From contig CAZTSX010000010.1 of NCBI GenBank assembly GCA_964616825.1, forward strand, positions 525 through 64,524: 64,000 bases of DNA, read 5' to 3'. Positions 4,660 through 60,588 of this stretch are shown here, in pieces; the first letter of the stretch is position 1; every line of letters begins with the position of its first letter. The position numbers were made by a program, and so were the translations under genes. The notes below the pieces were generated by a model. It was not told where the DNA came from and did not search any database. It worked only from the letters and a program-made list of their open reading frames with translations. This DNA is from an uncultured Prolixibacteraceae bacterium (lineage in GTDB: Bacteria > Bacteroidota > Bacteroidia > Bacteroidales > FEN-979).

Positions 4660-4676
4660 TATGAATTATTATAACA

Positions 4677-7600
4677 TTATTCTTTCCGGAGTGTTTGGAT
4701 CAGATCCCTTTTAAAAAGGAGTTGGACCGGGATCAGGATCCACACCGCTCCGCTTATCCATATCATCCCCAGTACCACCACGAGAAATCCTCCCGGCATC
4801 TGGTAGGCCGGTGAGATCAGAGAGGGAAGTATTCCCGCTACCGCTCCGATAATTCCCAGGACCATCCCGGCGAGAAGAATCAGAAGATATTCGATCATCA
4901 GCATTTTGCGGATGAAGTTCTTTCGAAATCCAATAGCCATATAGAGCGCCAGCTCACTGGTTCGTTCGAGGTTGTTACGCCAGAGGATGATGCCAAAACC
5001 AACCGTTCCGATCAGCACACCCAGTGCACCGAGGAGCATGAAGACCGACAGATAGGTGTTCTCTACGGAGTTGAATTCAGCCAGGCGTTCGGAGGCCGGA
5101 ACTGCCACCAGTCCATAGTCCACAAACAGCTCTTCAAGCCGGTTTGTGATCTCCTTTCGATGGTCAAATGGCCCCTCCACCAGCATGATCCGGGTTCCAC
5201 TGATAGAGGGGAACCGGTTTTTTAACAAGCTGTCGGAAACCAGGATATGTCCCTGGAAAATGGAGTTCGCCAATCCTCCCATCAGTTTTACCTGCAATAC
5301 CCTGCCTGCTTCATCAAGGTACCGGAGGGTATCGCCAACCGTTTTCCGCAATCCCCAGGTAATGACCGACTGATCCGCGAAGGCCGGGATCACGCCTGGT
5401 GAAAGCTCCTGGCTAAGCGTCAGCCATGGATGTTCCGGGTCTACTTCAGGGAGGAGATTCTCAAAGTTGAATGCGCCCAATGTATCAAAATTTCTTCCCG
5501 GGATCCCCAGCATCATGGGTTGCGTAACCTGGTTCAGGTTCAGGCAGCTGGCGTCATTGCCATCCAGCCGGTGCAATTGAAGATACCGGAGATCCTGCAA
5601 CAGGAGCTCATCGTCCAGCGCAAAATAGGCTTTCCCTGAAGTGGTGTTCAGGTCGTACAACAGGGGTATCGTCGTTTCGGCCCACAGGAGAAAACCTCCT
5701 GTTCCAGATTGGCGGTCTCTCTCGGTTCCAAAGAATGTTTTTCGGTTGGCTCCGGTGATGATGACAGTAAATGTCCCCAGGGCTAATAAAGATATCGCAG
5801 CCATACTCCTTCCCCGCTTCATGGATCCGAGCCTTACTATCATGGGCAACAAACCTGTATGGCCGGTAACATGTCTCTTTGATCGCCAGACAAGGAACAC
5901 ATAAACAAGAGCGATCCCTCCGCCCATCATCAGTCCACCAGCAGTGAGGTATAAGCCGGCATCAGGGACCATTAAGTCTGCCAGCAAAACAACCAGCAGC
6001 ACAATGGAGATGATCACAAGCATGATCCCGGTTCCCATCCATGCCTTTTTTTTCCGCTGAAGCCTACGTCCGGGAAGTCGTGGCGTCTCCTTCACCAGGC
6101 CGGTAACAGGTCGCCGGAGTTGTCTTCTCAGGGTTAAAAAGAGAACACATCCCGCCAGAATAAATCCTACAGCAGCTCCGGCAGCCAGAGAGGGAAGATT
6201 CACCTCCATCCGGAGCATCGAGGTTCTCACAGCATCCTGCCATAGTGTGTTTAGCCCTAAGAGGATAAGCTTATTATATAGAATTCCTGCGATGGCTCCA
6301 AGGATCACACCCGGAATTGCCACCAGGAGGGCTTCGGAAAAGAGGATCCGCATGATCAGCCATTTCCGGAATCCGAGCCCGGCTAACACCCCTGTTTCCG
6401 ACATCCTTGCTCTGGCATGAAGAGAGAATAGCAGTGCTGTGAGCAGGAGGGAAGAGGCAAGGAGAAAAAAGCTGAGACTCAGGAAGAGGCCTCCGAAATC
6501 AGTGGAATTCGCAGCTGCCTGTTGTCCCTGTTCCCTGACATGCTGAAAGACAAACCGGTGCCAGGAGGGATTTATCGCTGTCATAATGAGGGAGTCAACG
6601 GATGCCTGATTCCGGATGCCGTTGCCACATTGCGCTCGCAATGACAATGATGCCGGATTAGAAATGAAGCGGAAGGCTGTGACCGTTCCGAATGGATTAT
6701 CCCAGAGTTTCTCCCCATCTTCCAGGGTGATGAACGCTTTCGGGGTTCCTTTGAATGTATTCCAGTAGGCTTCATCCTTATCACGGATCCGATCCAGGTT
6801 CACCGGCGCTCCTGTTTCCCAGTCCCTGCAGTTACCGGCGCCGCTCATACCGGGAAAATCGGGCATCATTGTTTTGCCATCCGGAATGGCCTGCAGGGGA
6901 ATGATACCGGAGACTGTGAATCCTGCCTCTATTTCATTCAATCTCCTCAGCGGGCCCATAACATAATAGGTCATGTATAGTGAGTCTCCCGGCCTGACAC
7001 CCAGATCGGTAGCGAGCCAGTCGGTGACCAAGATCTCTCCGGGTGATAATGGCATCGGTAAAATTCCTTCATCCACGGCTGCCACAAACGAATAGGGTGT
7101 CTCTTCCCCGTTGGAAGTAAGGGTGTTGGCCAGGTAGGTAAAGAGGGGCAGGGCATCTGGAAGAGCAGTCCGGATGGCATTGGCAGTGAGATCGTCGAAG
7201 AAGATCCTGTCTGTGGTTATCCGGGATAATCCGCTTTCATCAAGTAGATTAATCTTGATTCCGGCATCTGCCATCTGCCAGGTTGACTCAAGGGCTTGAT
7301 CCAGTTTGTCTGCTGTCAGTTCATCGTTCTCTTCTGCGGGTATCAGCAACAGATTGGCAGATCCCGGGAGGCCGACCCGGCCGGCGAGCTGATCCATCAA
7401 GACAAACGCATTGTAAGGAGCCCGTTGATTGCTTTTCAGGCTGAACCTTCCCATTACCTCATTTCCTGCAATAGCTATAACCGTTAGCCGGATGGATGCT
7501 GCAGGCGTTTCATCAGCCACGAATGGCGCATTTTGAGGCACATTTCCCGGTTGCGGCAGACGAATCAATAGGGGATCTCCTGGTTCAAGAGCCAGACGTG

Positions 7601-8015
7601 ATGCCACGTTTTCACTGATAATCACTTCGTTCGCCTTAGGCAGTACCGGAGATGCTTTCCATAAAGAGGAAAAGCTGTTGTCGACTCCCACCACCTGTAT
7701 ATCCTGTAATCGATTGCCTGTCATGACATTGACCCCAATACCTGTCAACTGCATTACCGGCACCACAGGTTGCTCCAGTTCACGGGAGAGGTCAGCAGAA
7801 AGCGCTGACCTGAAATAGCGATCGCCCGGTTGCATCGCCCATTGTGTATCGCCCAATCTCAGTTCGGCCAGTCTTCCCAACGAACCTCTCACCGAATCCC
7901 CTACCAGTAGAGCTCCGGTCAGCACCGCTGTACTGACTATCACCCCAGCCAAAATAGCCAGGTAGGGCCACCGGTAAAAAATTACATTCCGGAAGATCAG
8001 CTTACCAATACTCAT
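4677..8015 (-). CDS. Large ABC transporter permease, MacB/FtsX/LolE type with duplicated FtsX domains
   Basis: 1112 aa. N-terminal TM with ALLVGDSVRGSL, two clusters of TM helices with R..E.G.L.G.GF and E.ALY.AIGF motifs and large periplasmic loops; overlaps the ABC ATPase by 4 bp. Confidence 0.88.
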   Translation of the reverse strand: MSIGKLIFRNVIFYRWPYLAILAGVIVSTAVLTGALLVGDSVRGSLGRLAELRLGDTQWAMQPGDRYFRSALSADLSRELEQPVVPVMQLTGIGVNVMTGNRLQDIQVVGVDNSFSSLWKASPVLPKANEVIISENVASRLALEPGDPLLIRLPQPGNVPQNAPFVADETPAASIRLTVIAIAGNEVMGRFSLKSNQRAPYNAFVLMDQLAGRVGLPGSANLLLIPAEENDELTADKLDQALESTWQMADAGIKINLLDESGLSRITTDRIFFDDLTANAIRTALPDALPLFTYLANTLTSNGEETPYSFVAAVDEGILPMPLSPGEILVTDWLATDLGVRPGDSLYMTYYVMGPLRRLNEIEAGFTVSGIIPLQAIPDGKTMMPDFPGMSGAGNCRDWETGAPVNLDRIRDKDEAYWNTFKGTPKAFITLEDGEKLWDNPFGTVTAFRFISNPASLSLRAQCGNGIRNQASVDSLIMTAINPSWHRFVFQHVREQGQQAAANSTDFGGLFLSLSFFLLASSLLLTALLFSLHARARMSETGVLAGLGFRKWLIMRILFSEALLVAIPGVILGAIAGILYNKLILLGLNTLWQDAVRTSMLRMEVNLPSLAAGAAVGFILAGCVLFLTLRRQLRRPVTGLVKETPRLPGRRLQRKKKAWMGTGIMLVIISIVLLVVLLADLMVPDAGLYLTAGGLMMGGGIALVYVFLVWRSKRHVTGHTGLLPMIVRLGSMKRGRSMAAISLLALGTFTVIITGANRKTFFGTERDRQSGTGGFLLWAETTIPLLYDLNTTSGKAYFALDDELLLQDLRYLQLHRLDGNDASCLNLNQVTQPMMLGIPGRNFDTLGAFNFENLLPEVDPEHPWLTLSQELSPGVIPAFADQSVITWGLRKTVGDTLRYLDEAGRVLQVKLMGGLANSIFQGHILVSDSLLKNRFPSISGTRIMLVEGPFDHRKEITNRLEELFVDYGLVAVPASERLAEFNSVENTYLSVFMLLGALGVLIGTVGFGIILWRNNLERTSELALYMAIGFRKNFIRKMLMIEYLLILLAGMVLGIIGAVAGILPSLISPAYQMPGGFLVVVLGMIWISGAVWILIPVQLLFKRDLIQTLRKE

Positions 8016-8687: not shown

Positions 8688-9983
8688 TTATTGTTTTTTG
8701 TTCAGGATCTGTTGATATATTTCTACCATCTTCCGGGTGAGGTTCCTACAATTAAACTGCCTTCTAACAGCTTTGATTCCTTCAGTACTCATCTGCTCAA
8801 TTTGTTCAGCAGAACCCAGCACATCTGAAAGTTTTGCTGCCAGGGCAGAAGAGGTATTTGGCCGGTAAACCACGCCACCGCCGGTGGCTTCTATGATCTC
8901 AGGAAATGCACCCAATGCAGGTTGAACCAGGGGAACTCCCGAGGCCAGTGCTTCGAGCTGGTAGAGCCCGAATGCTTCTCCTTTCAGCACCGGAACAGAC
9001 AGCAGTGTGATCTTCCGGAAAAAGTCGCTGAGTTGGTCCTGCCGAAAATCATGCATGATCTCCACCTGGCCGGAGAGATTAGCTTGCTTCAGTTTCTGCA
9101 TCTGCTTGTTGATAAAGGGCTTGTCGTCACCAGTCATCCCCCCGGTAGCATAGAGTCGCAATGGGGCAAACGAATTATTCTGTTTCAATTCAATAAATGC
9201 ATCGATGAGCAATTCAAATCCATTCTCTTCATTCATCCGGGAAAGATATCCGATGGCAGGAGGATCGGTGGCCAGCCGGGTAGGCTCATAGGCATCGGCA
9301 TTTACACCAATATAGACAACATGGAGTTTTTCATCTGGGATCTTCATCCGTTGCTGCATCACCCCTGCATAAAAGTGGCTGACTGCAATAAATCCATCCA
9401 CATCCTCTCCTTTCTGAGCCATCAACTCCCAGATACGTTTCCGGAACGATTCATGCATGGCATCCACCCAAACATCTTCATCCTGCAGAGAGAAAATCAC
9501 CGGAGTTTTCACCTCTTCCTTGATTCGTTTCGCTAATCCAAGAAGCAATGCATTCGAAAGATGCACTACGTCGGGTTTTTCCTTTTTGAGAAAGTCAACC
9601 AGCTCTTCAAGTTCTTGGTGTTGGTTTCCTTCACTTCCCAAAAGCATCGATTCGGTCATCTCCTCGAGTCCTGTTGCCCTCGTAGAACCTGCTTTGTGCG
9701 CTGCATAGCTGAGTATGGCTTTGGAGTTCAGGAACCGTTCCATAAATCCCGGCATGCTTCTTAACCAGGGATAGTTCTGCTTCAGGTAAAGGATTACTGC
9801 GCCGTAAAAAACCGGGACTTCGTCAGGTTTGGTTTGTCCGTTCAACGTTAATGGCAGGTACATAGGAACTGTGAGTGCATCGTGCCCCTCATTGCGAAGG
9901 GATTGCACCAGGGCACTGTCGCGAAGGCAATTCCCGCAATAAAATGTTCCTCCAAAACCCGGTACGATCTGGATAATTTTCAT
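8688..9983 (-). CDS. Glycosyltransferase family 4 (GT-B) with N-terminal CxxC
   Basis: EAFGLYQLEALASG (EX7E) motif and GT-B layout. Start placed at MKIIQIVPG (9983), giving an ATGA overlap with the upstream gene; the ORF-track extension to 10085 overlaps that gene. Confidence 0.85.
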   Translation of the reverse strand: MKIIQIVPGFGGTFYCGNCLRDSALVQSLRNEGHDALTVPMYLPLTLNGQTKPDEVPVFYGAVILYLKQNYPWLRSMPGFMERFLNSKAILSYAAHKAGSTRATGLEEMTESMLLGSEGNQHQELEELVDFLKKEKPDVVHLSNALLLGLAKRIKEEVKTPVIFSLQDEDVWVDAMHESFRKRIWELMAQKGEDVDGFIAVSHFYAGVMQQRMKIPDEKLHVVYIGVNADAYEPTRLATDPPAIGYLSRMNEENGFELLIDAFIELKQNNSFAPLRLYATGGMTGDDKPFINKQMQKLKQANLSGQVEIMHDFRQDQLSDFFRKITLLSVPVLKGEAFGLYQLEALASGVPLVQPALGAFPEIIEATGGGVVYRPNTSSALAAKLSDVLGSAEQIEQMSTEGIKAVRRQFNCRNLTRKMVEIYQQILNKKQ

Positions 9984-11181: not shown

Positions 11182-11248
11182 TCACTTATTCACCATTTCA
11201 CCACCTCACCATTACTCACCAACTCACCAGTTCACCAGTTCACTAGTT
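11182..11248. repeat. Imperfect 8-bp tandem array (TCACCA core) containing the stop codon of the upstream Fe-S flavoprotein gene
   Basis: TCACCA-type cores at 11182, 11190, 11198, 11206, 11216, 11224, 11232 and 11240; TGG TGA at the end of 11224..12801 is one unit. Confidence 0.85.
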
Positions 11249-12801
11249 CTATCTGCCAACGCCCCGGTGGGACATCCCTCCACACAAGACTGCGCTGTTT
11301 TAACCAATCCTTCCTGCATGGTTTTACTGAAAGGCACTGTGATCCTTACGTCAAAACCTCTGCCAATATAAGCCAACCCCAATGTTTCTCCATCTTTTTG
11401 CGTGATCTCCACACACAATCCGCACCGGATACATTTTTCTGGCTCGTAGACCACCAGGTCATGTTGCAGGTTCCTTGTCAGCTGATTCCTTTCTGCTGCA
11501 TCAAACCGTCTCTTGTTAACCCCGTATTGATCGGAAAATCTCCTCAACTTACAACTTACCGGCTTGCGGCAGTCGCAATGCATGCACCGCTGGGCTTCTC
11601 GGATTGCCTCATCCTGAGTAAATCCGGTCAGGTATCCCGACCCGGGATCGGTTCTTTCCTCAAAAGAAGCCTCCTGCATATACTCTTTGTTCTCTTCCTC
11701 TTTTAGCGGGCCGATGGATGAATTGAACATCGGCGTTCTACGAGGGATTGTTTCCCCTGAAAGATAGGCATCAGCCTCGAGTGCAGCTTTTTTTCCCTGG
11801 GCTACCGATCTTACGGATAGCAGCTGTTCGGAGATGATGCTGCCACAACCAAACACACCCGGCTTGCCTGAAGCAAAACTTTTTTTATGGATGACCGATT
11901 CATATTCCAAAATCGGCAAGTCAAATTCATCTACGGGGTGCTCCTCGCTAAATCCGGTTGCCAGGATCACCGCATCGAACCCGGGGAGGATCTCCTTATC
12001 CCACTTCTTCCCGGTAACCGGATAGTTAAGCTGAAACTCGCCTCCAAGTGCGCGAATGGATTCGATATCGGCATCGAGCATTTCTTTGGGAAGAAGATCA
12101 TCAGGGATACGATAACGCAGCGCTCCTCCGGCCTGTTCGTTTTTATCAAAAAGCGTACAGGCGTGACCTTGCTGAAGAGTATAAAACGCCGCTGCCAGTC
12201 CGGCCGGACCGGTACCGATCACAGCTACCTGTTTTCCGCTTTTTTCTGAGACCACCTCCAGGCCGGTTTTCCGAATGGCTTCATCCTGTGCTGTATATCG
12301 TTTCAACAGACAGATCGAGACCGGCTCATCAACCTTTTTCCTGCGGCAGGCTTTTTCGCAGGGGGCCGGACAGATATATCCGAGTATCAGAGGGAGAGCG
12401 ATCTCTTCCCTGACTACCCGAAGCGCTTCTTCATTCCTGTTAGCGGTAATCAATCTGTTCATCAGGGGTATGTTCATGAAGGCCGGGCACGAGATACGGC
12501 AAGGGGCCTCGCAATCCCCAACATGATCGCTTAGGAGCAGCTCCAGAGCCTCTTTCCGTGCTTCCATCACCTCTTTGGCAGATGCTGAAAGATTCATTCC
12601 GTCTGCGACAGGCATAGCGCAGGAGGGGAACAGTGTGCCACGATCAAGATCCTTAACCAGGCATACCATGCAAGAGGGGTGGTTGGAGTGGCCCGGCAGG
12701 TAACAGAGAGAGGGAATTTCGATTCCCTTCAGTGCCGCAGCCTGCATGACGGTCATGCCCTGCTCCACTTCTATAGCTGTATGGTCAATCGTGATGTGCA
12801 T
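11224..12801 (-). CDS. Fe-S flavoprotein, StnC/NfnA/SfrB-like: 2Fe-2S domain, GltD-type Fe-S/FAD module and HydA/NuoG-type 4Fe-4S region; NAD(P)H domain apparently absent
   Basis: 2Fe-2S motif SLC..PSCMVC..PSC; GltD-type CEAPCRISCP and ICPAPCEKACRR; FAD motif IGTGPAG; CMHCDC..SC and CIRCGLC...CPTGAL. No second GGGxxA Rossmann motif. Confidence 0.82.
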   Translation of the reverse strand: MHITIDHTAIEVEQGMTVMQAAALKGIEIPSLCYLPGHSNHPSCMVCLVKDLDRGTLFPSCAMPVADGMNLSASAKEVMEARKEALELLLSDHVGDCEAPCRISCPAFMNIPLMNRLITANRNEEALRVVREEIALPLILGYICPAPCEKACRRKKVDEPVSICLLKRYTAQDEAIRKTGLEVVSEKSGKQVAVIGTGPAGLAAAFYTLQQGHACTLFDKNEQAGGALRYRIPDDLLPKEMLDADIESIRALGGEFQLNYPVTGKKWDKEILPGFDAVILATGFSEEHPVDEFDLPILEYESVIHKKSFASGKPGVFGCGSIISEQLLSVRSVAQGKKAALEADAYLSGETIPRRTPMFNSSIGPLKEEENKEYMQEASFEERTDPGSGYLTGFTQDEAIREAQRCMHCDCRKPVSCKLRRFSDQYGVNKRRFDAAERNQLTRNLQHDLVVYEPEKCIRCGLCVEITQKDGETLGLAYIGRGFDVRITVPFSKTMQEGLVKTAQSCVEGCPTGALADRTSELVNW

Positions 12802-30231: not shown

Positions 30232-30792
30232 TTACAGACCGATTTCCTCCGCCACAGGCAACATTGATTCGATCGCCAGGGCGGCAAATTCGGGTAACGG
30301 AATCCCGATTTTTTCACACTCCAGGATGATTTCCCGATTTACTGAGGCAGCAAACGCCTTCGCTTTCATTCGTTTCACAACCGACTTTGGCTTTACGCTG
30401 GAAAGTTTTTTATCCGGATAAACGTAGGTGGTTGCAAAAATTAACCCGGTAATGGTCTCTCCCGCAGCCAGCGCATGCTGGAATTCAGTGTGCCGGTCTT
30501 TCCCTGAAGAGCATTCGTTGTGCATCCGGATCACATCCAGGATCTCCGGATCGACATCATAATCCTTCAGTAACACCTCCGTCTGGGTACCATGAGCTGT
30601 CGGTTCGGCGTTCGTGACCTCCACATCCAGGTCGTGCAGCAACCCAGCCATCGCCCATTTTTCCTCATCCCTGCCAAGTCTCCTGGCCAATCCCCTCATG
30701 ACGGCTTCTGAGGCGAGAGAGTGAAAGATCATTTTTTCGTTCTTGATATGAGTGTTGATTAATTCAATGGCTTGTGCTCTGGTTAAAGGCAT
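30232..30792 (-). CDS. HD/HDIG-domain metal-dependent hydrolase
   Basis: HSLASE...GLLHDLD...H motifs; SVVKRMK.KAFAA.V.R segment typical of this family. Confidence 0.85.
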   Translation of the reverse strand: MPLTRAQAIELINTHIKNEKMIFHSLASEAVMRGLARRLGRDEEKWAMAGLLHDLDVEVTNAEPTAHGTQTEVLLKDYDVDPEILDVIRMHNECSSGKDRHTEFQHALAAGETITGLIFATTYVYPDKKLSSVKPKSVVKRMKAKAFAASVNREIILECEKIGIPLPEFAALAIESMLPVAEEIGL

Positions 30793-30809
30793 GTGTTAAA
30801 ATAATTAAT

Positions 30810-30950
30810 TGGCGAACTGGTGAATTGGTGAACTAGTGAGTTGAAGATTTTTAAACAAAAGTATTACCTTTTTGAAATATCTGGATTAATGAAGAAAATC
30901 ATAAAAAATAACTCACCAACTTGCAAGCTCACCAATTCGCCAACTCACCC
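30810..30950. repeat. Inverted pair of 8-bp tandem arrays (TGGTGA cores ... TCACCA cores) between divergent genes
   Basis: Cores at 30810, 30818, 30826 and 30834; reverse-complement cores at 30913, 30929, 30937 and 30945. Confidence 0.8.
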
Positions 30951-48489: not shown

Positions 48490-48521
48490 GCGGGAATTTA
48501 TGTAATGGCGACCGGGTTTAT

Positions 48522-49349
48522 ATGGGTTATTACATCCTTGCATTCCTTCTTATTCATTCCTTATTCCTCATTGGACAGGATTTAACCCCAGTGAAGAACG
48601 AAGCCTTCACCCAAGGCGAATTCCTGAAATACCGTGTCTATTACGACTCCTATGTTACAGGAAAGGTAACTGCCGGAATTGCTACGGCCGAGGTCAAATT
48701 TGATCTGGAAGAGGTGAACGGAAGGCAAACCTATCACCTGGTTGGAAAAGGCAAAACCCAGGGAGCGTTTAACTTATTTTTTAAAGTAAACGACCGGTTT
48801 GAAAGTTTTATAGACAGGGAATTGCTGGTTCCATGGAAATTCATCCGGCGAACAAAAGAGGGAGATTACGAATACGATGATGATGTAAAGTTCAACCAGT
48901 TCACAGGAACTTATTCAAGCACACGCAAGAATAAATCAATGCCCAAAGGAACGCAGGATCTGATCTCTGCATTATATGTTGCCCGAACGTATGATCTTTC
49001 TAACGCTTCGCCTGGAGATAATTTTCCTATTACCTTTTTGCTGGATGACTCGATTTACGTTTCGGCAATCATGTATATGGGAAAAGCTGATGTTCTGACT
49101 GACCTTGGGACATTCCGTTGTCTCCGGTTCCAGCCCATGGTCGTGTCCGGAAACGTCTTCTCCCAGCCCTATCCCATGGATGTCTGGATCACAGATGATA
49201 AAAATCACATCCCCCTGCTGATTAAATCTGCTGTGATTATCGGATCTATCAAGATGGAGCTCATGGAATACAAAGGGCTGGCAAATCCCATGACTTCGAT
49301 GATCAAGCCTCCAAAGAGAAATCGATCCAAAAAGAAGAGAAAAAACTGA
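48522..49349 (+). CDS. DUF3108 domain protein (exported)
   Basis: Signal peptide; AF..GE.L.Y; FFKVND.FES..D; W.TDD.N.IP; start at MGYYIL after the leuS stop. Confidence 0.8.
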   Translation: MGYYILAFLLIHSLFLIGQDLTPVKNEAFTQGEFLKYRVYYDSYVTGKVTAGIATAEVKFDLEEVNGRQTYHLVGKGKTQGAFNLFFKVNDRFESFIDRELLVPWKFIRRTKEGDYEYDDDVKFNQFTGTYSSTRKNKSMPKGTQDLISALYVARTYDLSNASPGDNFPITFLLDDSIYVSAIMYMGKADVLTDLGTFRCLRFQPMVVSGNVFSQPYPMDVWITDDKNHIPLLIKSAVIIGSIKMELMEYKGLANPMTSMIKPPKRNRSKKKRKN

Positions 49350-49526: not shown

Positions 49527-52500
49527 ATGAGATCACTACATGTGCTTATCGCCCTATCGTTTGTAGTAACTGGTCATGCGGAAATACGGTCATACGGTCA
49601 TCCAGTCATGGCATCAACTCCCTTATTCACCTGGTCACCCGTTCACCTGATTACTTGTTCACCTGTTCACCTGTTCACCAGTTCACTCAATCGAGATTAC
49701 CAAAAGCAATGGGCAAAAGTCGACTCACTCACCAAATCGGGACTTCCCCGGTCAGCTTTGAAAGTTGTCGATAAAATATATTCCCTGGCGAATTCAGAGA
49801 AAAACAATCCCCAGGTGGTCAAAGCAATCCTCTACCGGCTCAGGCTGAATTCCGATTTTCAGGAAAATTTTCCTGTTCATGCCATCCGGGAGATTCAAAA
49901 GGAGATTGCCATTTCACAGGAGCCTGTTAAACAGATTCTGCACTCCATCCTCGGAGAGCTCTGCTGGAACTATTTCCGGATGAATCAATACCGTTTTCAA
50001 AATCGCACTTTCATTCCCGATAATCAATCAGATGATCCGGAAACATGGGATCTCAATACACTGGCCTCCCAGATCATCCTCAACTACAGATTGTCCCTAT
50101 CTAATGATATCGTATTACAGGATATCCCTATTGAGCAATTTCAAGCTATTCTTGATCAGCCTGTTCTTGCTGAAGGAGAATCAGATCCAACACCTGAGTT
50201 TCGCCCTACACTCTTTGATTTCCTGGCCCACCGGGCACTTGACTTTTTTACAACATCGGATCTCCTTTTAAATCAATCCGTCTATACATTCAGTCTGGAT
50301 AATGCAGCTTTCTTTGATCCAGCTCAAAAATTTATCAACTACCCCCTCCAGTCCAAAGGGATTCATTCACGGTCCGGTGATGGTTCGTTTATCCCACCAG
50401 AAAATGATACCTTATCACTTCCCTGGTATGCGATTCGGATATTTCAGGCACTTGATCAGTTTCACATTAACGATAAAAATCCCCGTGCATTGATAGATGT
50501 GGAGCTTGACCGCTATGCATATGTTCTGAATGAAAGCACGTTACCAGCGAAAGATAGCATCTACCTTCAAGCCTTGCAGCAATTTGAACAGGATTATACC
50601 TATTCCCCTTTTTCAACTGAAATTTCATTTGTTATAGCTGAAAAACTGATACAAGAAGGAGCAACATACGATCCTCTGGTCTCAGATAGTCATAAGTGGG
50701 ATCTGAAAAAGGCCCTTCAGATATGTATTCAGGCGAATGAAAAATTTCCCGATGCTGACGGGAGTAGGGCATGCCGGAGACTCATCAAGGAGATCAAAGA
50801 GCCTTCCCTGACAATTACATCAGAATATGCTATTATCCCTTCCCGGCCAGCGTTAATCTCATTGGGATTTAAAAATGTTTCAGCATTACATTTCAGGATG
50901 GTAAAAGCTAATCCGGATCAATTTCCGTCGGCTCTTTCGGGATTGAAGCAAGCACAGATTCTCAACTACCTGGCCCGTCTGGAAATGGTATCCGACTGGT
51001 CTGTTTCATTGCCTTCCGACGGCGATTACCAGGAGCATCAAACAGAGATATCAATCCCTGCAGTTGAACCGGGTTTCTACATCCTTTTCTCTTCATCAGA
51101 CTCCTCCTTTCAAAATCCTGAAATGCCATTTACCTATCAATCTCTCTGGTCATCACAAATCAGTTATGTTACGCAGCGTATAGCTACCGGAGGGGTTGAT
51201 GTTTATCTTTTGAACAGGGACAGCGGCAGGCCTTTACCAAACTTGCTTGCTGAATCCTATTCCAGGAGCTATAACTCCAGGGAGAGAGTTTATACCACAA
51301 CGAAAACAGGCGAATATCATTCAGATGCTTCCGGATTTTTCTCAATTCCGGCTCCAGAAAAACGCGGCATCCATACCAATCTCTACCTGAAGATCCACTC
51401 GAAAAAGGATCTGTTGATTACCGAATCATTTTATCTCTATCCTGCCGTTACAAAAGCAACCAGGACCGTTGAGCAGACACGGTTTTTCACCGACCGTGCG
51501 ATATACCGGCCGGGACAAATTATCTATTTTAAAGGGATTATACTGGAGCGGACTGGAGATTCGTCCTCTTTGAAAACAAACAAAACAACCCGTGTTGCAT
51601 TCACTGATGTGAATGGACAGAAGATTTCAGAACAGACCTTCACTACCGATTCCTATGGCGCTTTCAATGGCTCCTTTATTGCTCCGGGTGGTGTGTTATT
51701 GGGCGATATGCGTATCTTCAATGAGTCGGGTTCCATTACTCTTTCCGTGGAAGAGTATAAAAGGCCCACTTTTGAAGTGCTGTTTGATCCAATAGAAGGA
51801 AATTATAAATTGGGAGAGAAGGTGACGGTGATTGGCAAGGCAATCGGGTATGCCGGGAATGCTGTCGATGCCGGCAGTGTCAGTTTTCGTATAGTACGAA
51901 CCGCCCGTTTCCCTTTTTGGAACCGGATGTGGTACTACCCCTTTCCCTCTTCCCCCGAAACAGAGATCATCAACGGTACTGTTATCACGCAACCTGACGG
52001 ATCGTTTACCATTTCCTTTGATGCGATCCCTGACCTCACCGTGCCGGCCCAGACCAAGCCGGTATTCACATTCCAGGTTTATGTCGATGTAACCGATATC
52101 AATGGGGAGACCCGTTCGGCACAAGAGTCGATATCGGTAGGCTATATTTCACTGATTATCGATATCGAAATTCCTGAAAAACTGAATCTTAAAAAAGTAT
52201 CTGCACTCTCACTCAGCACAACCAACCTGAATGGCAGGCCCACTCCTTCCGATGTACAAGTTGTCCTGTCCAGATTGGATGAGCCGGAACGAGCGTTCAA
52301 AAAACGTCTTTGGGGCCGTCCTGATCTTACCCTCATGTCGGAAGAGGAATTTTATTCTCAATTTCCGAACGATATTTATGAAAACGACGATGACCCGGCG
52401 ACCTGGAAAATATCGTCAACGGTATTCGATAAGGTGTTGAACACCTCCAGAGATACCCTGTTGAATTTCGCAGATACCGGATGCCGGATACCGGATGCCG

Positions 52501-55500
52501 GATATTATAAAATCGAATTGAGTGCGACTGATCCTTTCGGCCAAAAAGTTGAAAAAACACTCTATTTCATTGCATTTGATCCGGATAGCAATCAGATTCC
52601 TGTTCCCGAAATGAACTGGTTTGTTCCATTACAGATCGAAGGAGAGCCGGGAGAGCAAGCCTCCTTTCTTATTGGCACCAGTGAAAAAAATGTACAGGTT
52701 ATCTGGGAAATCCGGGTGAAAGATCAGCTCCAATCCAGGGAGTGGATCAAACTCAACAACCAGCAAAAAAAGATCGAGATTCCGATCCTGGAAGCATACC
52801 GGGGTAATTTCTCGGTGAATTTTCTCTTTGTCAGGGATAACAGGGTATACCAGAACAGCCAGGTGATCACAGTTCCCTATACAGATAAAAAACTCGACAT
52901 CACATTTGAAACATTCCGGAACAAGCTGATCCCGGGACAACATGAAGAGTGGAAGATTTGGATCACCAATGCCGATAAAGAGGGGGTTGAAGCCCAATTT
53001 TTAACCACAATGTATGATCGTTCTCTTGACGTTTTCAGGAGTAACTCATGGACTTTCGATCTTTACCGAAAATTCTATTTCAACGATCCGTGGGAGATCC
53101 ATAATGATTTCAGAACATCAGCAAATTCCTGGTACTCAACCTGGTCCCATGAAGTTGTCTCTCCCCGTGAATATGACCGGTTGAACTGGTTTGGAATTCG
53201 GGTAGCACAGCCTTTCTACTCACGATCGGGAGGATTAAAAGGAGTATACATGGTGGAAAAGATGGATGCCCCGGAAGCCGAACCTTCTATGGGTGGCAAC
53301 GAAGATGTTGTGCCTCCTCTTTCTCACGATCAAACCAAATCAGGAAGTAGCACTAGCCAGGATGTACCGGTAATTCCGATTCGGAAAGATTTTAGTGAAA
53401 CAGCGTTTTTCTATCCATCCCTGACCACAGATTCAGACGGGAGGTTATATCTGAAATTCACCGTGCCGGATGCATTGACCTCCTGGAAATTGCTCGGCCT
53501 TGGCTACACCAAACAGCTTGATTACGGATTGATTGAGAAAGAGCTGATCACCCGGAAGGACCTGATGGTATTTCCCAATCCGCCCCGTTTTCTCAGGCAG
53601 GGGGATACCATTGTGTTCAGTGCTAAGATTGTCAACCTGAGCAATCATGAGATCAGTGGTGAATCAATGCTCAATTTGTCGGAAGCAGTTACGTTACAAC
53701 CATTAGATAATTTGATCCTGGATCCTGGATCCTGGATGCCGGATAGCAAATTCTTCACTATTCCCGCCGGTCAGAGTGCCGGTGTCTCCTGGACCATCGC
53801 TATCCCGGTTACGAACATCATAAGCCTGTTGAAATACCGTGTCACAGCACATGCAGGAAATTTCAGTGATGGAGAAGAGAACACCATCCCGGTGCTCACC
53901 AATCGAATGCTGGTCACCGAGTCGCTCCCGTTACCGGTCAGAGGGCAAGGTACATTCAATTTTACGTTCGATAAATTAAAAAACTCCGCTTCCCAGCCAG
54001 ATGCCACTCTGGAAAACTACAGGCTGACACTTGAATTTGCCTCGAATCCTGCCTGGTATGTAGTTCAGGCATTGCCCTCTTTGAATGAAGTGATCTATAA
54101 AAATGCCGGTCAAATCTTCGGGGCTTTCTATGCGAATGGTTTAGCTGCACATATTGCTAACTCACGGCCGGAGATCCGACTTGTATTTGAGAGCTGGAAA
54201 GCATTGACACCAGATGCTCTGGTATCGAATCTGGAAAAGAATGAGGAACTCAAAACAGCGATCCTGGAGGAGACACCCTGGGTGATAGAGGCTAAAAGCG
54301 AAACCCAGAACAAGCGTCGGATAGGATTATTTTTCGACATGAATAACCTGGAAAATAACCTGAAGCAAAACCTTTCAAAACTCATCGAGATGCAGAAACA
54401 TTCAGGTGGCTGGCCATGGTTTGAAGGGATGCGTGAGAGCCGGGTGATCACATTAAACATCTTGACCGGACTTGGTCGCCTTAAGCATCTGGGAGCCAGA
54501 TATGCTTTGCAGGAGGCCCAGGTGTCTGCGATGATCAAACGTGCCATTCAATACCTGGACGAGGAATTGGTCAACGATTATGAAAAACTGAAAAAAAGAT
54601 TTCCTAAAAAGTTGAACCAGAATCACCTGACGCCCCTTCAAATAAAATACCTCTATGCCCGAAGTTTTTTCAAACAGATACCGGATCCCGGATTCCGGAT
54701 CCCGGATTCATCATCCAGCATCAACCAAGTGCTGCAATACTATACTTTCCAATCTAAAATGTACTGGTTAAAGCAGGACATCTACTCCCAGGGGATGATT
54801 GCACTTGCGTTGAACCGCACTGGAGATCGTGATATTTCGTTGAAAATTCTGCAATCACTGAACGAAAAAGCGTTGCATTCGCCTGAGATGGGAATGTATT
54901 GGGCAACGCAAAATGGCTATGAGTGGTACCGGGCTCCGATTGAAATCCAGGCCTTGTTGATCGAAGCGTTTGATGAGATTGTTAATGACCGGAAATCTGT
55001 TGAAGAGATGAAAATCTGGCTGTTGAAACAGAAACAAACCCAGATGTGGCGAACCAGGCAGGCAACGGTGGATGCCTGTTATGCACTGCTCTTAAGAGGG
55101 GTAAATCTGCTTGCAGACGATCCACAAGTATCCATTACCATCGGTGACTTGAAGATTGATCCTTCGAAATTGACCGATTCAAGAACAGAGGCTGGAACCG
55201 GGTATTTTAAGATGTCGTGGATGGGAGATCAAATCAAGCCGGATATGAGTACCATTCAGATTACAAAATCGACGGATGGTATTGCCTGGGGCGGATTGTA
55301 CTGGCAGTATTTCGAAAACCTCGATAATATCACCCCGCATGAAACACCATTAACGGTTGAGCAACAATTATTTCTTGAGAAGAACACTGAATCCGGTCCA
55401 GTATTAGAAAAGATACCGGATGCCGGATATCAGAAACCAGATTCAATATCCAACATCCAACATCCAACATCTCTTGAAGTGGGAGATAAAGTCATTGTCC

Positions 55501-55847
55501 GCATCCTTTTAACGGTAGATCGAACCATGGAGTTCGTCCATCTGAAAGCTATGCGTGCATCCGGTCTGGAGCCATTTTACTCACTTAACTCACCAGCTCA
55601 CCAGCTCACCAGCTCACCACTCTCCGGCTATCGATACCAGGATGGGTTGGGCTATTACCAGTCGACAACGGATGTGGCGACAAACTTCTTTTTTGACAAC
55701 CTGCCCAAAGGAACCTATGTGTTTGAATACCCGCTTGTGATAAATAATGCCGGAAACTTCTCTAATGGAATCACAACGGTTCAATGCATGTATGCTCCGG
55801 AATTCTCATCACATACAGAAGGAGTCAGGATTGAGGTAACGAAGTAG
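49527..55847 (+). CDS. Bacterial alpha-2-macroglobulin family protein
   Basis: 2106 aa; FTDRAIYRPGQ (MG2), EEYKRPTFEV, RKDFSETAFFYP, PDALTSW, Q..SGGWPWF, G.FSNG...VQCMYAPEF. Confidence 0.92.
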   Translation: MRSLHVLIALSFVVTGHAEIRSYGHPVMASTPLFTWSPVHLITCSPVHLFTSSLNRDYQKQWAKVDSLTKSGLPRSALKVVDKIYSLANSEKNNPQVVKAILYRLRLNSDFQENFPVHAIREIQKEIAISQEPVKQILHSILGELCWNYFRMNQYRFQNRTFIPDNQSDDPETWDLNTLASQIILNYRLSLSNDIVLQDIPIEQFQAILDQPVLAEGESDPTPEFRPTLFDFLAHRALDFFTTSDLLLNQSVYTFSLDNAAFFDPAQKFINYPLQSKGIHSRSGDGSFIPPENDTLSLPWYAIRIFQALDQFHINDKNPRALIDVELDRYAYVLNESTLPAKDSIYLQALQQFEQDYTYSPFSTEISFVIAEKLIQEGATYDPLVSDSHKWDLKKALQICIQANEKFPDADGSRACRRLIKEIKEPSLTITSEYAIIPSRPALISLGFKNVSALHFRMVKANPDQFPSALSGLKQAQILNYLARLEMVSDWSVSLPSDGDYQEHQTEISIPAVEPGFYILFSSSDSSFQNPEMPFTYQSLWSSQISYVTQRIATGGVDVYLLNRDSGRPLPNLLAESYSRSYNSRERVYTTTKTGEYHSDASGFFSIPAPEKRGIHTNLYLKIHSKKDLLITESFYLYPAVTKATRTVEQTRFFTDRAIYRPGQIIYFKGIILERTGDSSSLKTNKTTRVAFTDVNGQKISEQTFTTDSYGAFNGSFIAPGGVLLGDMRIFNESGSITLSVEEYKRPTFEVLFDPIEGNYKLGEKVTVIGKAIGYAGNAVDAGSVSFRIVRTARFPFWNRMWYYPFPSSPETEIINGTVITQPDGSFTISFDAIPDLTVPAQTKPVFTFQVYVDVTDINGETRSAQESISVGYISLIIDIEIPEKLNLKKVSALSLSTTNLNGRPTPSDVQVVLSRLDEPERAFKKRLWGRPDLTLMSEEEFYSQFPNDIYENDDDPATWKISSTVFDKVLNTSRDTLLNFADTGCRIPDAGYYKIELSATDPFGQKVEKTLYFIAFDPDSNQIPVPEMNWFVPLQIEGEPGEQASFLIGTSEKNVQVIWEIRVKDQLQSREWIKLNNQQKKIEIPILEAYRGNFSVNFLFVRDNRVYQNSQVITVPYTDKKLDITFETFRNKLIPGQHEEWKIWITNADKEGVEAQFLTTMYDRSLDVFRSNSWTFDLYRKFYFNDPWEIHNDFRTSANSWYSTWSHEVVSPREYDRLNWFGIRVAQPFYSRSGGLKGVYMVEKMDAPEAEPSMGGNEDVVPPLSHDQTKSGSSTSQDVPVIPIRKDFSETAFFYPSLTTDSDGRLYLKFTVPDALTSWKLLGLGYTKQLDYGLIEKELITRKDLMVFPNPPRFLRQGDTIVFSAKIVNLSNHEISGESMLNLSEAVTLQPLDNLILDPGSWMPDSKFFTIPAGQSAGVSWTIAIPVTNIISLLKYRVTAHAGNFSDGEENTIPVLTNRMLVTESLPLPVRGQGTFNFTFDKLKNSASQPDATLENYRLTLEFASNPAWYVVQALPSLNEVIYKNAGQIFGAFYANGLAAHIANSRPEIRLVFESWKALTPDALVSNLEKNEELKTAILEETPWVIEAKSETQNKRRIGLFFDMNNLENNLKQNLSKLIEMQKHSGGWPWFEGMRESRVITLNILTGLGRLKHLGARYALQEAQVSAMIKRAIQYLDEELVNDYEKLKKRFPKKLNQNHLTPLQIKYLYARSFFKQIPDPGFRIPDSSSSINQVLQYYTFQSKMYWLKQDIYSQGMIALALNRTGDRDISLKILQSLNEKALHSPEMGMYWATQNGYEWYRAPIEIQALLIEAFDEIVNDRKSVEEMKIWLLKQKQTQMWRTRQATVDACYALLLRGVNLLADDPQVSITIGDLKIDPSKLTDSRTEAGTGYFKMSWMGDQIKPDMSTIQITKSTDGIAWGGLYWQYFENLDNITPHETPLTVEQQLFLEKNTESGPVLEKIPDAGYQKPDSISNIQHPTSLEVGDKVIVRILLTVDRTMEFVHLKAMRASGLEPFYSLNSPAHQLTSSPLSGYRYQDGLGYYQSTTDVATNFFFDNLPKGTYVFEYPLVINNAGNFSNGITTVQCMYAPEFSSHTEGVRIEVTK
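49571..49688. repeat. Two in-frame 8-bp arrays at the A2M N-terminus (CGGTCATA x5; GTTCACCT x8)
   Basis: 49571-49610 and 49625-49688, imperfect units read directly from the sequence. Confidence 0.8.
52472..52506. repeat. In-frame 7-bp array (GGATRCC x5) in A2M
   Basis: agatacc ggatgcc ggatacc ggatgcc ggatatt. Confidence 0.8.
53714..53748. repeat. In-frame 7-bp array (GATCCTG x3 plus variants) in A2M
   Basis: gatcctg gatcctg gatcctg gatgccg gatagca. Confidence 0.8.
54676..54724. repeat. In-frame 7-bp array with inverted tail in A2M
   Basis: agatacc ggatccc ggattcc ggatccc ggattca tcatcca gcatcaa. Confidence 0.8.
55411..55473. repeat. In-frame 7-bp array with inverted tail in A2M (nine units)
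   Basis: agatacc ggatgcc ggatatc agaaacc agattca atatcca acatcca acatcca acatctc. Confidence 0.8.
55579..55625. repeat. In-frame 8-bp array (AGCTCACC) in A2M
   Basis: actcactt aactcacc agctcacc agctcacc agctcacc actctcc; same core as the arrays at 11182, 30913 and 60189. Confidence 0.8.
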
Positions 55848-55912
55848 TGAGTAAGCGAGAAGTGAAAATTTCGCTATTTCGTTATTTCGTTATTTCGCTA
55901 CCTCGCTATTTT
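55837..55912. repeat. Inverted pair of 8-bp arrays (TAGCGAAA / TTTCGCTA) spanning the A2M stop
   Basis: taacgaag tagtgagt aagcgaga, then tttcgcta tttcgtta tttcgtta tttcgcta cctcgcta. Confidence 0.75.
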
Positions 55913-59105: not shown

Positions 59106-60194
59106 ATGAAAAAGAACTTCGTTTTTCTTCTCCTGGCATGTAGTTGGAGTCTTTTCTCTTTTTCGCAGAACGAAAATTCATCTGTTCAGGAAGAGATCAT
59201 TGAGTTGAAATCAGATCTCCGCGATCTCTCTTTTGATATTGATCGTGTCCGGAAAGCTGTCGACGACATTCGCTGGTACAATCGTGTGGGTGATGTTGCT
59301 TTCATTGACAAAGTGTATATCACAGGCCCTCCTATCAACCAGGAGACAGTAACAAATGAGACCGCCATGGGGGTGAAAAATCCGATTAAATTTTACGCTT
59401 ATGTATTCGTCCCGAAAGGAATTGATGGCAGTAAAAAATATCCCCTGCTGGTCTTTCCGCATGGAGGCGTTCATGGCGACTTTACCACGTATTATGCACA
59501 TATCGTACGGGAGATGATGGCTCAGGGGTATATTGTGATCGCACCGGAATATCGGGGAAGCACCGGATATGGGAAATCATACTGGGAGCGGATCGACTAC
59601 GGCGGACTGGAGGTGGAAGATGCTGATGCCAGCCGGAATTATATGGTGGAGAACTATTCTATTGTCGATAAAAACCGGATCGGAATCCTCGGCTGGAGTC
59701 ATGGTGGAATGATCTCATTGTTGGCTGTATTCAACCATCCTAACCACTACAACGTCTGTTTCGCCGGTGTTCCCGTCAGCGACCTGATCTCCCGGATGGG
59801 GTATCAGGATGATAATTATCGGGCTCTCTACTCTGCCGATTATCATCTTGGGAAAACAGCACAGGAGAATGTTGAGGAGTACAAACGCCGATCTCCAGCC
59901 TGGAATACACACAAACTGAAAACACCTCTGTTGATCCATACCAATACCAACGACGATGATGTCAATGTACTGGAAGTTGAGCACCTGATCAAAGGCCTGA
60001 AAGCGGATGGAAAAACGTTTGAATATGAAATATTTGAAGAGGTGGAAGGAGGTCATTCATTCGACCGTATCGACACCAAGACCGCTAAAGAGATACGCCT
60101 GAAGATTTACTCTTTCCTCGACAGGTATCTGAAACCTCCCAGACCCATAAAAACAATCGGGGAGCTCGATCGGGCAGCATATATGAGTTGGTGA
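59106..60194 (+). CDS. S9 family (prolyl oligopeptidase-like) serine hydrolase, exported
   Basis: Signal peptide; PHGGVHG, YRGSTGYG, GWSHGG nucleophile motif, DDDV, GGHSF. Confidence 0.9.
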   Translation: MKKNFVFLLLACSWSLFSFSQNENSSVQEEIIELKSDLRDLSFDIDRVRKAVDDIRWYNRVGDVAFIDKVYITGPPINQETVTNETAMGVKNPIKFYAYVFVPKGIDGSKKYPLLVFPHGGVHGDFTTYYAHIVREMMAQGYIVIAPEYRGSTGYGKSYWERIDYGGLEVEDADASRNYMVENYSIVDKNRIGILGWSHGGMISLLAVFNHPNHYNVCFAGVPVSDLISRMGYQDDNYRALYSADYHLGKTAQENVEEYKRRSPAWNTHKLKTPLLIHTNTNDDDVNVLEVEHLIKGLKADGKTFEYEIFEEVEGGHSFDRIDTKTAKEIRLKIYSFLDRYLKPPRPIKTIGELDRAAYMSW

Positions 60195-60297
60195 GATGGT
60201 GAGATGGTGAGTTGGTGAGATGGTGAATTGGTGATGTGGTGATGTGGTGAGCTAGCGAGAACCGAGCATCGAGCATCGAATTCCGAGCATCGAGCAT
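60189..60297. repeat. Composite intergenic array: TGGTGA core x8 at 8-bp spacing, then CGAGCAT x5 at 7-bp spacing
   Basis: Cores at 60189-60245 in steps of 8; heptamers at 60263-60297; spans the whole gap between convergent stops. Confidence 0.88.
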
Positions 60298-60588
60298 CTA
60301 GTCTTTAATCAACCGGTCCAATCCGGCGATCATAAATACTTTCTTAACATCCGGTTTTGGGTGGCGGATCCAGAATTTCTCACTCCCCAGCTCTTTGAAT
60401 TTCATCAGGCAGATTCGCAGAAATGTGGAGGAGATATAATCGACTTGTGAAAAGTCAAAGATCAATTTCTTTCCCGGATCAGTACATTTATTGATCTCTG
60501 GTTCAAGATTTTGTGAGATTATTGTATCCAATCTGCCAGATAGATGACAGATCATTTGATCGGTATTGGATTCTGTTTTCAAACTCAT
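60298..60588 (-). CDS. STAS domain protein (anti-sigma-factor antagonist type)
   Basis: LSGRLDT, LIFDFSQVDYISSTFLR, VKKVFMIAGL. Confidence 0.88.
   Translation of the reverse strand: MSLKTESNTDQMICHLSGRLDTIISQNLEPEINKCTDPGKKLIFDFSQVDYISSTFLRICLMKFKELGSEKFWIRHPKPDVKKVFMIAGLDRLIKD

Follow-up and report, generated by a model that had tools for sequence, protein, structure and literature searches.

Here, we analysed a stretch of 64,000 nucleotides (the window) from contig CAZTSX010000010.1 of an uncultured marine Prolixibacteraceae bacterium (Bacteroidales; assembly GCA_964616825.1), in which one gene of the alpha-2-macroglobulin (A2M) superfamily carries seven short tandem arrays with units of 7 or 8 nt that are translated in frame as parts of the protein. 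The arrays are real, old and stable, and they are not a fast on/off switch. Our preferred explanation, to which we assign a probability of roughly 0.58, is that they are lineage-typical, non-triplet long simple sequence repeats (SSRs) which slippage renews and translation filters, leaving them in tolerant loops.

Seven in-frame arrays in one gene

The A2M gene (49527..55847, + strand) is an open reading frame (ORF) of 2106 uninterrupted codons and makes up 9.9% of the 64-kb window. An earlier sequence-only reading had described seven arrays in this frame; all of them were recovered at their positions by Tandem Repeats Finder (TRF), and the peptides quoted for them are all present in the translation. 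Array A1 (49572..49609, + strand, as are all others) consists of 4.8 decayed copies of the 8-nt unit GGTCATAC and begins in the conserved T-G-H codons which end the signal peptide; the identical unit occupies the same place in the related locus L049, and a related unit is found in locus L003. Array A2 (49626..49686) comprises 7.6 copies of the 8-nt unit TTCACCTG with its TCACC core, lies in the linker at the N-terminus of the mature protein and encodes SPVHLITCSPVHLFTSS; it is missing in locus L048, whose linker is short. The next arrays have 7-nt units. A3 (52473..52504) is built from 4.6 copies of GATRCCG (GATACCG or GATGCCG) and encodes the peptide TGCRIPDAGY, with its last unit specifying a G-[YS]-Y motif that is found family-wide. 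A4 (53714..53744; GATCCTG and GATGCCG units, 3.4-4 copies) encodes LDPGSWMPDS, while A5 (54677..54716) starts with 4-4.4 copies of GATNCCG (GATCCCG), continues with CATC-type units and encodes IPDPGFRIPDSSSS. A6 (55411..55471) has two arms, a forward arm GATACCGGATGCCGGATAT of the GATRCCG type (55411-55430) and a reverse-type arm (55444-55471) of 3.4 ATCCAAC units, reported by TRF as four copies of CAACATC; it forms an imperfect hairpin and encodes IPDAGYQKPDSISNIQHPTS. A7 (55579..55619) again has 8-nt units, namely 3.9 copies of CTCACCAG (55589-55619) next to decayed units, and yields the peptide SPAHQLTSSP. These 3.9 units are the longest perfect run in the gene; the other arrays match their consensus by 72-100% over 3-7 units according to TRF.

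All of these arrays repeat in tandem as DNA and not as peptides, and with a period of 7 or 8 nt each unit comes to be translated in all three frames. Two families can be distinguished. The 7-mer GGATNCN (equivalently CCGGATN) encodes G-Y-R-I-P-D-A, in its general form G-[YSCF]-R-[IM]-P-D-[APST], and the 8-mer TCACCNNN encodes S-P-x-H-x-L-T-x over three frames. Further 8-mers with the TCACC core are TCACCTGT and TCACCAGC as well as, between genes, TCACCAAC, TCACCATC and TCACCAAT. The two families differ in how orientation affects their translation. Read in reverse, TCACCNNN becomes NNNGGTGA, which brings TGA into frame within three units and is untranslatable; for this reason, the coding TCACC arrays are in sense orientation in all cases. 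GGATNCN is stop-free both ways, and orthologues show both orientations, as IPDAGY and as SGIRHPA. The array at 11182-11249 illustrates the constraint on the 8-mers: it is GGTGA-oriented relative to the glutamate-synthase-like gene 11224-12801 (-) and, because this orientation contains TGA, it ends the gene by providing its stop codon at 11224.

A strict scan of the window found nine arrays of period 7 or 8 compared to 0.04 expected (0.02 per period, from 50 triplet shuffles), and no arrays of period 5, 6, 9, 10 or 12. Six of the nine are located within the A2M gene, for which a hand-calculated binomial probability is about 6e-5; a looser scan yielded 13 arrays against 0.25 expected, seven of them in the gene. 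A chance origin of the arrays is excluded. These statistics cover the one 64-kb window plus syntenic flanks. Six loci of the clade (L001-L006, 54-87% identity) hold 23 strict arrays in their A2M genes compared to a single one in an approximately equal length of flanking DNA, so that the gene was rightly called a repeat hot spot. Among 35 homologues of 28-38% identity, which include Proteiniphilum, Petrimonas and rumen Bacteroidales, the A2M genes contain no array and about 0.5 Mb of flanks contain three. The hot spot is real, clade-specific and inherited. The same motif families had also been said to occur between genes. This applies to the TCACC 8-mers, with intergenic arrays at 11182-11249, 30807-30843, 30910-30949 and 60184-60250, but not to the GGATNCN 7-mers, which in the window are confined to coding DNA: the A2M gene and two 2-unit traces in a cargo gene of the type IX secretion system (T9SS).

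The host protein and its loops

Four Pfam domains were matched above their gathering scores: MG2 (aa 653-730, 6.7e-12), A2M_BRD (aa 1040-1145, 1e-06), A2M (aa 1292-1378, 3.8e-18) and bMG10 (aa 1978-2092, 5.9e-25). With its macroglobulin (MG)-type, A2M and C-terminal bMG10 domains, the protein belongs to the bacterial A2M superfamily. A search of the PDB by sequence alone gave marginal matches only, and a fold search was therefore needed. An AlphaFold (AF2) model of aa 940-2106, computed from 74 orthologues with a mean predicted local distance difference test (pLDDT) score of 70.9, has as its best Foldseek matches the Salmonella A2M structures 4u48 (E 7.7e-33) and 4u4j and the E. coli protein ECAM (5a42), all with E values from 1e-31 to 1e-33 and a probability of 1.00. 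The template modelling (TM) scores against the solved A2M structures reach just 0.2-0.3 because the domain arrangement differs or is uncertain, and the identity to them is 12%. The CxEQ thioester motif is absent from the whole protein, and none of its seven cysteines lies between aa 987 and 1850 or in the region of the thioester domain (TED). From these two observations we conclude that the protein is of the thioester-less A2M type; a thioester-containing A2M of the ECAM/YfhM type is ruled out by the missing CxEQ. YfaS/MagD is the thioester-less type of bacterial A2M, and the genes of the relatives carry the Joint Genome Institute (JGI) label 'YfaS'.

With a ratio of non-synonymous to synonymous substitution rates (dN/dS) of 0.11-0.16 outside the arrays, the gene is functional. 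Its product is a periplasmic or envelope protein, for which protease trapping is only putative. At its N-terminus, we recognised the signal-peptide-like sequence MRSLHVLIALSFVVTGHA (49527..49580, + strand) by eye, and reading of the sequence revealed no lipobox cysteine in it. The public gene call P0001 (2079 aa) begins at M28 (49608) and thereby drops the signal peptide together with array A1. Another gene call, P0121 (2106 aa), begins at M1 (49527), in agreement with the orthologue alignment. M1 is thus probably the true start and the M28 start of P0001 probably wrong; since the signal peptides of the orthologues align with M1, arrays A1 and A2 are translated. Bacterial A2M genes are linked to pbpC. 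Here, the neighbours are leuS, DUF3108 and aspS, the order leuS-DUF3108-A2M-aspS is retained in four species, and no lipobox that would allow lipoprotein anchoring is evident.

The array sites correspond to six loops whose lengths vary among 59 orthologues, and had been regarded as insertions. In three of them, the window protein is longer than the orthologue median, namely in the N-terminal linker (45 aa compared to 29 aa), the A5 loop (21 compared to 17 aa) and the A6 loop (30 compared to 16 aa). Judged by the refuting criterion that the sequence-only reading had itself set, no net insertion was found at A3 (15 aa, median 15 aa), A4 (18 aa, median 18 aa) and A7 (19 aa, median 18 aa), and the A3 loop can be aligned with one of the same length in orthologues that lack the array, e.g. 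KSASMKPGVY. The model places all five arrays that it covers (A3-A7) in coils, and four of them, A4-A7, lie between secondary-structure elements and dip below a pLDDT of 50. In model numbering, A3 (residues 44-54) is predicted as a coil running into a beta-strand, A4 (458-467; pLDDT below 50 at 461-465) as a loop between two strands, A5 (778-791; below 50 at 782-784) as a loop between two helices of the TED-like domain, A6 (1023-1043) as a low-confidence coil and A7 (1079-1092; below 50 from 1082) as a loop within the C-terminal bMG10 domain. The expectation that the arrays reside in loops was therefore borne out, and both the loop lengths and the model indicate that in-frame insertion is tolerated at these surface sites.

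Do the arrays form a new bait for proteases, as had been suggested? The bait region of bacterial A2M is largely disordered and expected just before the A2M domain (PMC4498604). Following position and disorder, our candidate is the largest disordered stretch of the model, a segment of about 130 residues (aa ~1164-1296; 53016..53414, + strand) with a pLDDT below 50 at model residues 225-357, which abuts the N-terminal side of the Pfam A2M domain; a further disordered stretch of the model spans aa 1315-1342. According to TRF and the model, the candidate segment contains no array. Together with the missing CxEQ motif and the lack of cysteines in the TED region, this speaks against the bait proposal.

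Descent, stability and origin of the arrays

The closest relatives of the window are uncultured Bacteroidales known from metagenome-assembled genomes, several of which come from the Black Sea water column. In a codon alignment with the loci L051 (87% identity), L048 and L049 (77% identity each), the arrays of window and relatives occupy orthologous loops. Clean length changes between species were found at A3, A5 and A6 and amount to 21 nt, i.e. three 7-nt units. Compared to the window, A3 is 21 nt longer in L049, A6 is 21 nt shorter in L048 and L049, and A5 is 21 nt shorter in L048, which keeps one unit ATC CCG GAT (IPD) in place of the four found in the window. At A4, three species show a forward array and L051 a reverse-type one, and the arrays of the N-terminal linker are not present in L048. 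Changes in unit number, the signature of slippage, are hence present between species and absent within species, and for the changes between species the proposed multiples of three are borne out. Since the arrays are found at orthologous sites in species separated by a dS above 1, they are mostly inherited and renewed in place, and the gene does not simply accumulate them. The constraint on the encoded peptides is weak: dN/dS rises from the value given above to 0.63-0.84 in the array columns, figures which rest on few codons and on same-family repeats that align well regardless of orthology. Judged by these rates, the array peptides appear nearly free to change, while the rest of the gene is strongly constrained.

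Within populations, the arrays are stable. The same A2M protein sequence recurs without change on at least 40 contigs (14 + 28, counting P0121 and the M28 version P0001), and direct reading of 23 contigs encoding the window protein revealed no array variation. The protein of the sister species (P0002/P0123), present on 11 contigs, shows two substitutions and no length change. In the near-clonal pair L051/L052 of the sister species, all arrays are identical across 26 kb that differ by one mismatch and one 72-nt indel, and the differing lengths of the called genes reflect the choice of start codon and not indels. The 72-nt indel is unrelated to the arrays and concerns the 36-nt unit CTGTAGGGGCGACCGGGTTTATATGGAAGATTACAT, of which L051 has one copy (~8896) and L052 three (8824-8967). 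A single copy of this 36-nt unit was also observed in the window (48495-48535), between leuS and DUF3108, where it overlaps the likely start codon of DUF3108. One metagenome scaffold (L173, 1-5510) holds the only frameshifted allele found: a 19-nt deletion, corresponding to window positions 52366-52384, breaks its A2M gene into two ORFs. The deletion is flanked by CGA microhomology and lies 90 nt upstream of A3, and arrays A3-A7 are unchanged; the broken gene represents a true pseudogene allele or else an artefact of the assembly. All of these stability data come from consensus assemblies, which rare variants could escape.

Under our preferred explanation, replication slippage would create the arrays and continually renew them, partly starting from native codons of the loops. 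Pro-Asp (CCG GAT) and Gly-Tyr/Ser (GGA TNN) could serve as seeds, as together they hold the unit CCGGAT. Seeding in place is suggested because L048 keeps a single IPD where the window has four units, and because the last unit of A3 is the conserved G-[YS]-Y motif. Partial self-complementarity of the CCGGAT units would favour slipped hairpins and hence their own propagation. Translation would then keep only those arrays which preserve the frame, are free of stops in every frame and lie in structurally tolerant loops. The encoded residues P, D, G, S, T and H suit loops and linkers, and the arrays may thus persist as disordered loops with little or no specific function. Candidate seeds abound. 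CCGGAT occurs 148 times in the window compared to 43 +/- 7 times in dinucleotide shuffles, and outside the arrays 137 times compared to 104 under a trinucleotide model. The palindrome ATCCGGAT has 13 occurrences in the window, and outside the arrays 26 compared to 13.8 under the trinucleotide model; in the loci of the clade, its excess reaches 4.8x in L048 and is nil in L003 and L002, and in most of the distant Bacteroidales it is found at about 1x or below. Neither word is among the top words of the window, and a highly iterated word of the HIP type is rejected, as the excess of CCGGAT mainly reflects trinucleotide composition. CCGGAT, though no such word, provides many seeds.

The CCGGATN core is not limited to this clade. 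(CCGGATN)4 was found in at least 120 metagenome contigs (L053-L172) with G+C contents (GC) of 0.32-0.74, none of them A2M-related among the matches listed; in many of the high-GC contigs, the ORF assignment is unreliable. Judging from these contigs, the heptamer core forms arrays in very different organisms. One of the metagenome contigs (L068, GC 0.51) carries an ORF of 1689 aa (2564-7633) that is UvrA-like and contains at least six in-frame arrays of 7- or 8-nt units, with GATCCCG at three sites as well as CATCTGG, CACAAAGG and CGCGATA. Genes with several in-frame non-triplet arrays thus exist elsewhere. A protein search with an array-encoded peptide returned only six hypothetical ORFs of 50-69 aa and was uninformative on host families.

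Several observations weigh against slippage and tolerance as the whole explanation. No slippage event has been directly observed. The TCACC 8-mers are not self-complementary (z of +1.27 and -1.8 for the folded RNA), so that the hairpin argument does not extend to them. Furthermore, why should the arrays prefer the A2M gene? Other large envelope proteins encoded in the window are without a strong array, among them DUF748 proteins of 1312 and 763 aa, T9SS cargo proteins of 927 and 823 aa and an FtsX/MacB protein of 1112 aa, and slippage plus tolerance leave this preference unaccounted for. In addition, all six substitutions that separate the window, L051 and L048 at A3 and A5 are located at the one position of the unit that is degenerate, which by a hand calculation has a chance of (1/7)^6, about 1e-5. 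Most of the six are non-synonymous, and not one synonymous change was found in the CCGGAT core in this comparison. Between the window and L048, dS is 0.36 in the arrays compared to 1.30 in the rest of the gene. The nucleotide core thus seems to be conserved beyond neutral expectation, although the peptide appears nearly neutral. Finally, unit variants tend to be shared between loops of the same genome (ACG at A3 and A4 in L005, CCA at A3 and A5 in L049, CCT at A4 and A5 in L002), which hints at an exchange between arrays or a motif-specific process.

A motif-specific process that rewrites CCGGAT+N and TCACC+2-3N cores at fixed loops over deep time is an unlikely competitor to renewal by slippage. 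The A2M preference and the conserved core, left unexplained otherwise, leave room for it or for a role at the DNA or RNA level. Conceivable drivers would be quasi-palindromic units that propagate themselves, conversion among arrays within a gene, or a factor that binds or nicks a specific sequence. The A2M gene may then be a conserved 'cradle' where non-triplet repeats of DNA keep turning into protein loops, with the constraint acting on the motif in the DNA instead of on the peptide.

Alternatively, the loops might be diversified adaptively: three-unit changes would vary surface loops which face changing proteases or ligands, as a secondary bait or for recognition, and positive selection would have turned the gene into a hot spot. 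Loop lengths do vary widely among orthologues (12-41 aa at A3, 12-44 aa at A4 and 13-46 aa at A6), the steps between species are 21 nt, the array codons show the raised dN/dS of 0.63-0.84, and the enrichment in A2M is clade-wide while other large envelope proteins are free of arrays. However, a dN/dS below 1 suits relaxation and not positive selection, the bait candidate is array-free and the thioester missing, variation within populations is absent, and the substitutions follow the unit of the DNA and not the peptide. We consider this explanation rather improbable.

Selection on the nucleotide motif itself, for hairpins or factor binding that would serve ribosome pausing between domains, mRNA stability or as recognition sites, leads to the folding properties of the arrays. 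The 7-mer sites often combine a forward with a reverse-type array to an imperfect hairpin. In the relatives L003 (14363-14430) and L005 (14147-14214), A4 has 31-nt arms that are 74% complementary, and the predicted RNA folds of A6 (z -3.87) and of A4 in L003 (z -3.67) and L005 (z -3.50) are significant. A3 alone reaches a z of -2.98, its CCGGAT units being partly self-complementary. A palindromic structure was observed at A6 and at the A4 site of relatives, and none at A1, A2 and A7. At the end of the gene, an inverted pair of 8-nt arrays (55845..55911, + strand; TAGYGARN, then 5.5 copies of ATTTCGCT) with a T-rich tail is predicted to form a stem-loop of -25.2 kcal/mol (z -3.95) which includes the A2M stop codon in its 5' arm and is kept in four close species. 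A terminator-like match lies inside it (55854-55875), and we regard the stem-loop as terminator-like; a scan for sigma-70 promoters, which is ill-suited to Bacteroidota, gave no excess. In favour of a function of the nucleic acid, these hairpins and the intergenic pair at 30807-30949 (z -6.0) are joined by the CCGGAT core, which remains fixed while the degenerate position changes non-synonymously, and by the lower dS of the arrays. Against it, the 8-mer arrays are unstructured, and in the window A3, A4 and A5 have lost the reverse arm or never had it (z -1.2 to -3.0). Moreover, closely related species differ by gain, loss, inversion or replacement of arrays, as seen for A4 in L051 and the N-terminal linker in L048, the alignment of same-family repeats regardless of orthology inflates their apparent conservation, and no binding factor is known. 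On balance, such a function appears improbable.

Further arrays were observed outside the A2M gene of the window. At 30807-30949, a region between divergent genes holds two oppositely oriented TCACC-type 8-mer arrays, which are spaced by about 65 nt and predicted to fold as a long stem (-41 kcal/mol, z -6.0), one arm of which stops 15 nt before the start codon of gene 30232-30792 (-). Between convergent genes, 8.5 copies of TGAGATGG followed by five copies of CGAGCAT (60184-60298) overlap the stop of gene 59106-60194 (+). In the A2M genes of L003 (10049-10115 and 14321-14394) and L005 (12920-12950 and 14153-14180), (GGGATRC)n and (GGGCATAC)n arrays have at least four G3 tracts on the coding strand and fit the pattern of a G-quadruplex motif. 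For the window arrays, a G-quadruplex is ruled out, as their units carry GG tracts only.

Small palindromic mobile elements with arms of 7- or 8-nt units, similar to Rickettsia palindromic elements (RPEs), miniature inverted-repeat transposable elements or REPINs, might have inserted in frame. The imperfect palindromes of forward and reverse arrays at A4, A6 and between genes, and the recurrence of the same unit families at several sites per genome with genome-specific variants, would be compatible with this, and RPEs set a precedent for in-frame insertion into loops (PMC10969869). Yet a fixed-length consensus is absent, with unit number, sequence and arm content differing at every site and in every species; the sites are orthologous across species with a dS above 1 and not scattered; L048 shows at A5 nothing but one native IPD codon triplet; and the 8-mer arrays lack a palindromic structure. 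In the array flanks that were read, neither terminal inverted repeats nor target duplications stood out, a dedicated search not having been made, and transposase or RAYT genes were looked for only among ten scanned proteins. The mobile-element origin is accordingly very doubtful, and the RPE analogy, which the sequence-only reading had drawn, remains valid for the outcome, i.e. repeat-derived loops, and not for the type of element. A contingency locus, in which adding or losing a single unit of 7 or 8 nt would alter the frame and toggle A2M off and on, is highly improbable: a slip by any single unit would indeed cut the protein short, the position of A1 and A2 close to the 5' end is typical of phase-variable tracts (Lin and Kussell, cited in PMC4692102) and one disrupted allele (L173) exists, but the arrays are imperfect with just 3-5 clean units, the exact protein recurs on at least 40 contigs, P0002/P0123 differs on its 11 contigs by two substitutions only, L051 equals L052 at all arrays, the 19-nt deletion of L173 lies outside the arrays, and seven independent switches would leave the gene mostly off. 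The phase-switch role attributed to the arrays is hence not supported.

Relation to known repeats and meaning

In the part of the survey by Mrazek (2007) that is reported in PMC4679880, long SSRs with units of 5-11 nt are lineage-specific, ascribed to polymerase slippage and most commonly heptanucleotides. The arrays described here resemble them as short head-to-tail units in excess of chance that are typical of a lineage. According to the same report, coding repeats are mostly multiples of three, whereas here units of 7 or 8 nt are in frame at seven sites in orthologous loops. In Xanthomonas and Nostoc, the heptamers GGGNATC and GGGGA(C/T)T occur more often than expected in non-coding DNA and less often on the coding strand (Rehm et al. 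2015, PMC4692102). They share with our arrays a conserved core with one degenerate position, about four units and tandemly inverted pairs (PMC4692102). In contrast to them, the window units have a different core and GG only, which makes a three-tetrad quadruplex impossible, (GGGATRC)n being found in L003 and L005. TAACTGA heptamers of Beggiatoaceae, cyanobacteria and a few Bacteroidetes are mainly intergenic and positioned just upstream of start codons (MacGregor 2015, PMC4679880). As in our case, orientation decides whether they can be translated, one orientation having stops in all frames, and the rare cases within ORFs are found at the protein periphery (PMC4679880). Unlike these repeats of a single unit sequence, the arrays studied here belong to several unit families and lie mainly inside one gene.

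RPEs measure about 150 bp, have family consensus sequences and are dispersed among unrelated genes (PMC10969869). In both cases, repeated DNA is kept in frame and tolerated as surface-compatible peptide segments (PMC10969869). The present tandem arrays differ from them by a length of 20-60 nt without a fixed element, by their concentration in one gene and by inheritance at orthologous sites. The contingency tracts of Haemophilus and Neisseria are long, perfect, usually single per gene and variable between isolates (e.g. PMC2651432). Our arrays are likewise non-triplet repeats in a gene for an envelope protein, where a slip by a single unit shifts the frame; unlike those tracts, they number seven in the gene, are short and imperfect, and do not vary across at least 40 contigs. 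As to the host protein, Pfam and the model give it the MG/TED/C-terminal MG architecture and fold of ECAM/YfhM and Salmonella A2M (4u48, 5a42; PMC4498604), and the disordered segment predicted in front of its A2M domain is a candidate bait region. These proteins have about 1650 aa, whereas the protein of the window has 2106 aa, no CxEQ and no evident lipobox, and its trapping activity is only putative.

Non-triplet SSRs inside genes are usually viewed as lethal or as phase switches. The arrays in the A2M gene represent a third outcome, namely long-lived protein loops, and they offer a concrete, testable path by which slippage of DNA could give rise to disordered segments of proteins. If it is true that a dedicated process conserves the motif, a so far unknown driver of repeat formation would be at work, with relevance also for the numerous (CCGGATN)n arrays of environmental genomes. 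For the family itself, the arrays mark a natural set of tolerated insertion sites in bacterial A2M.

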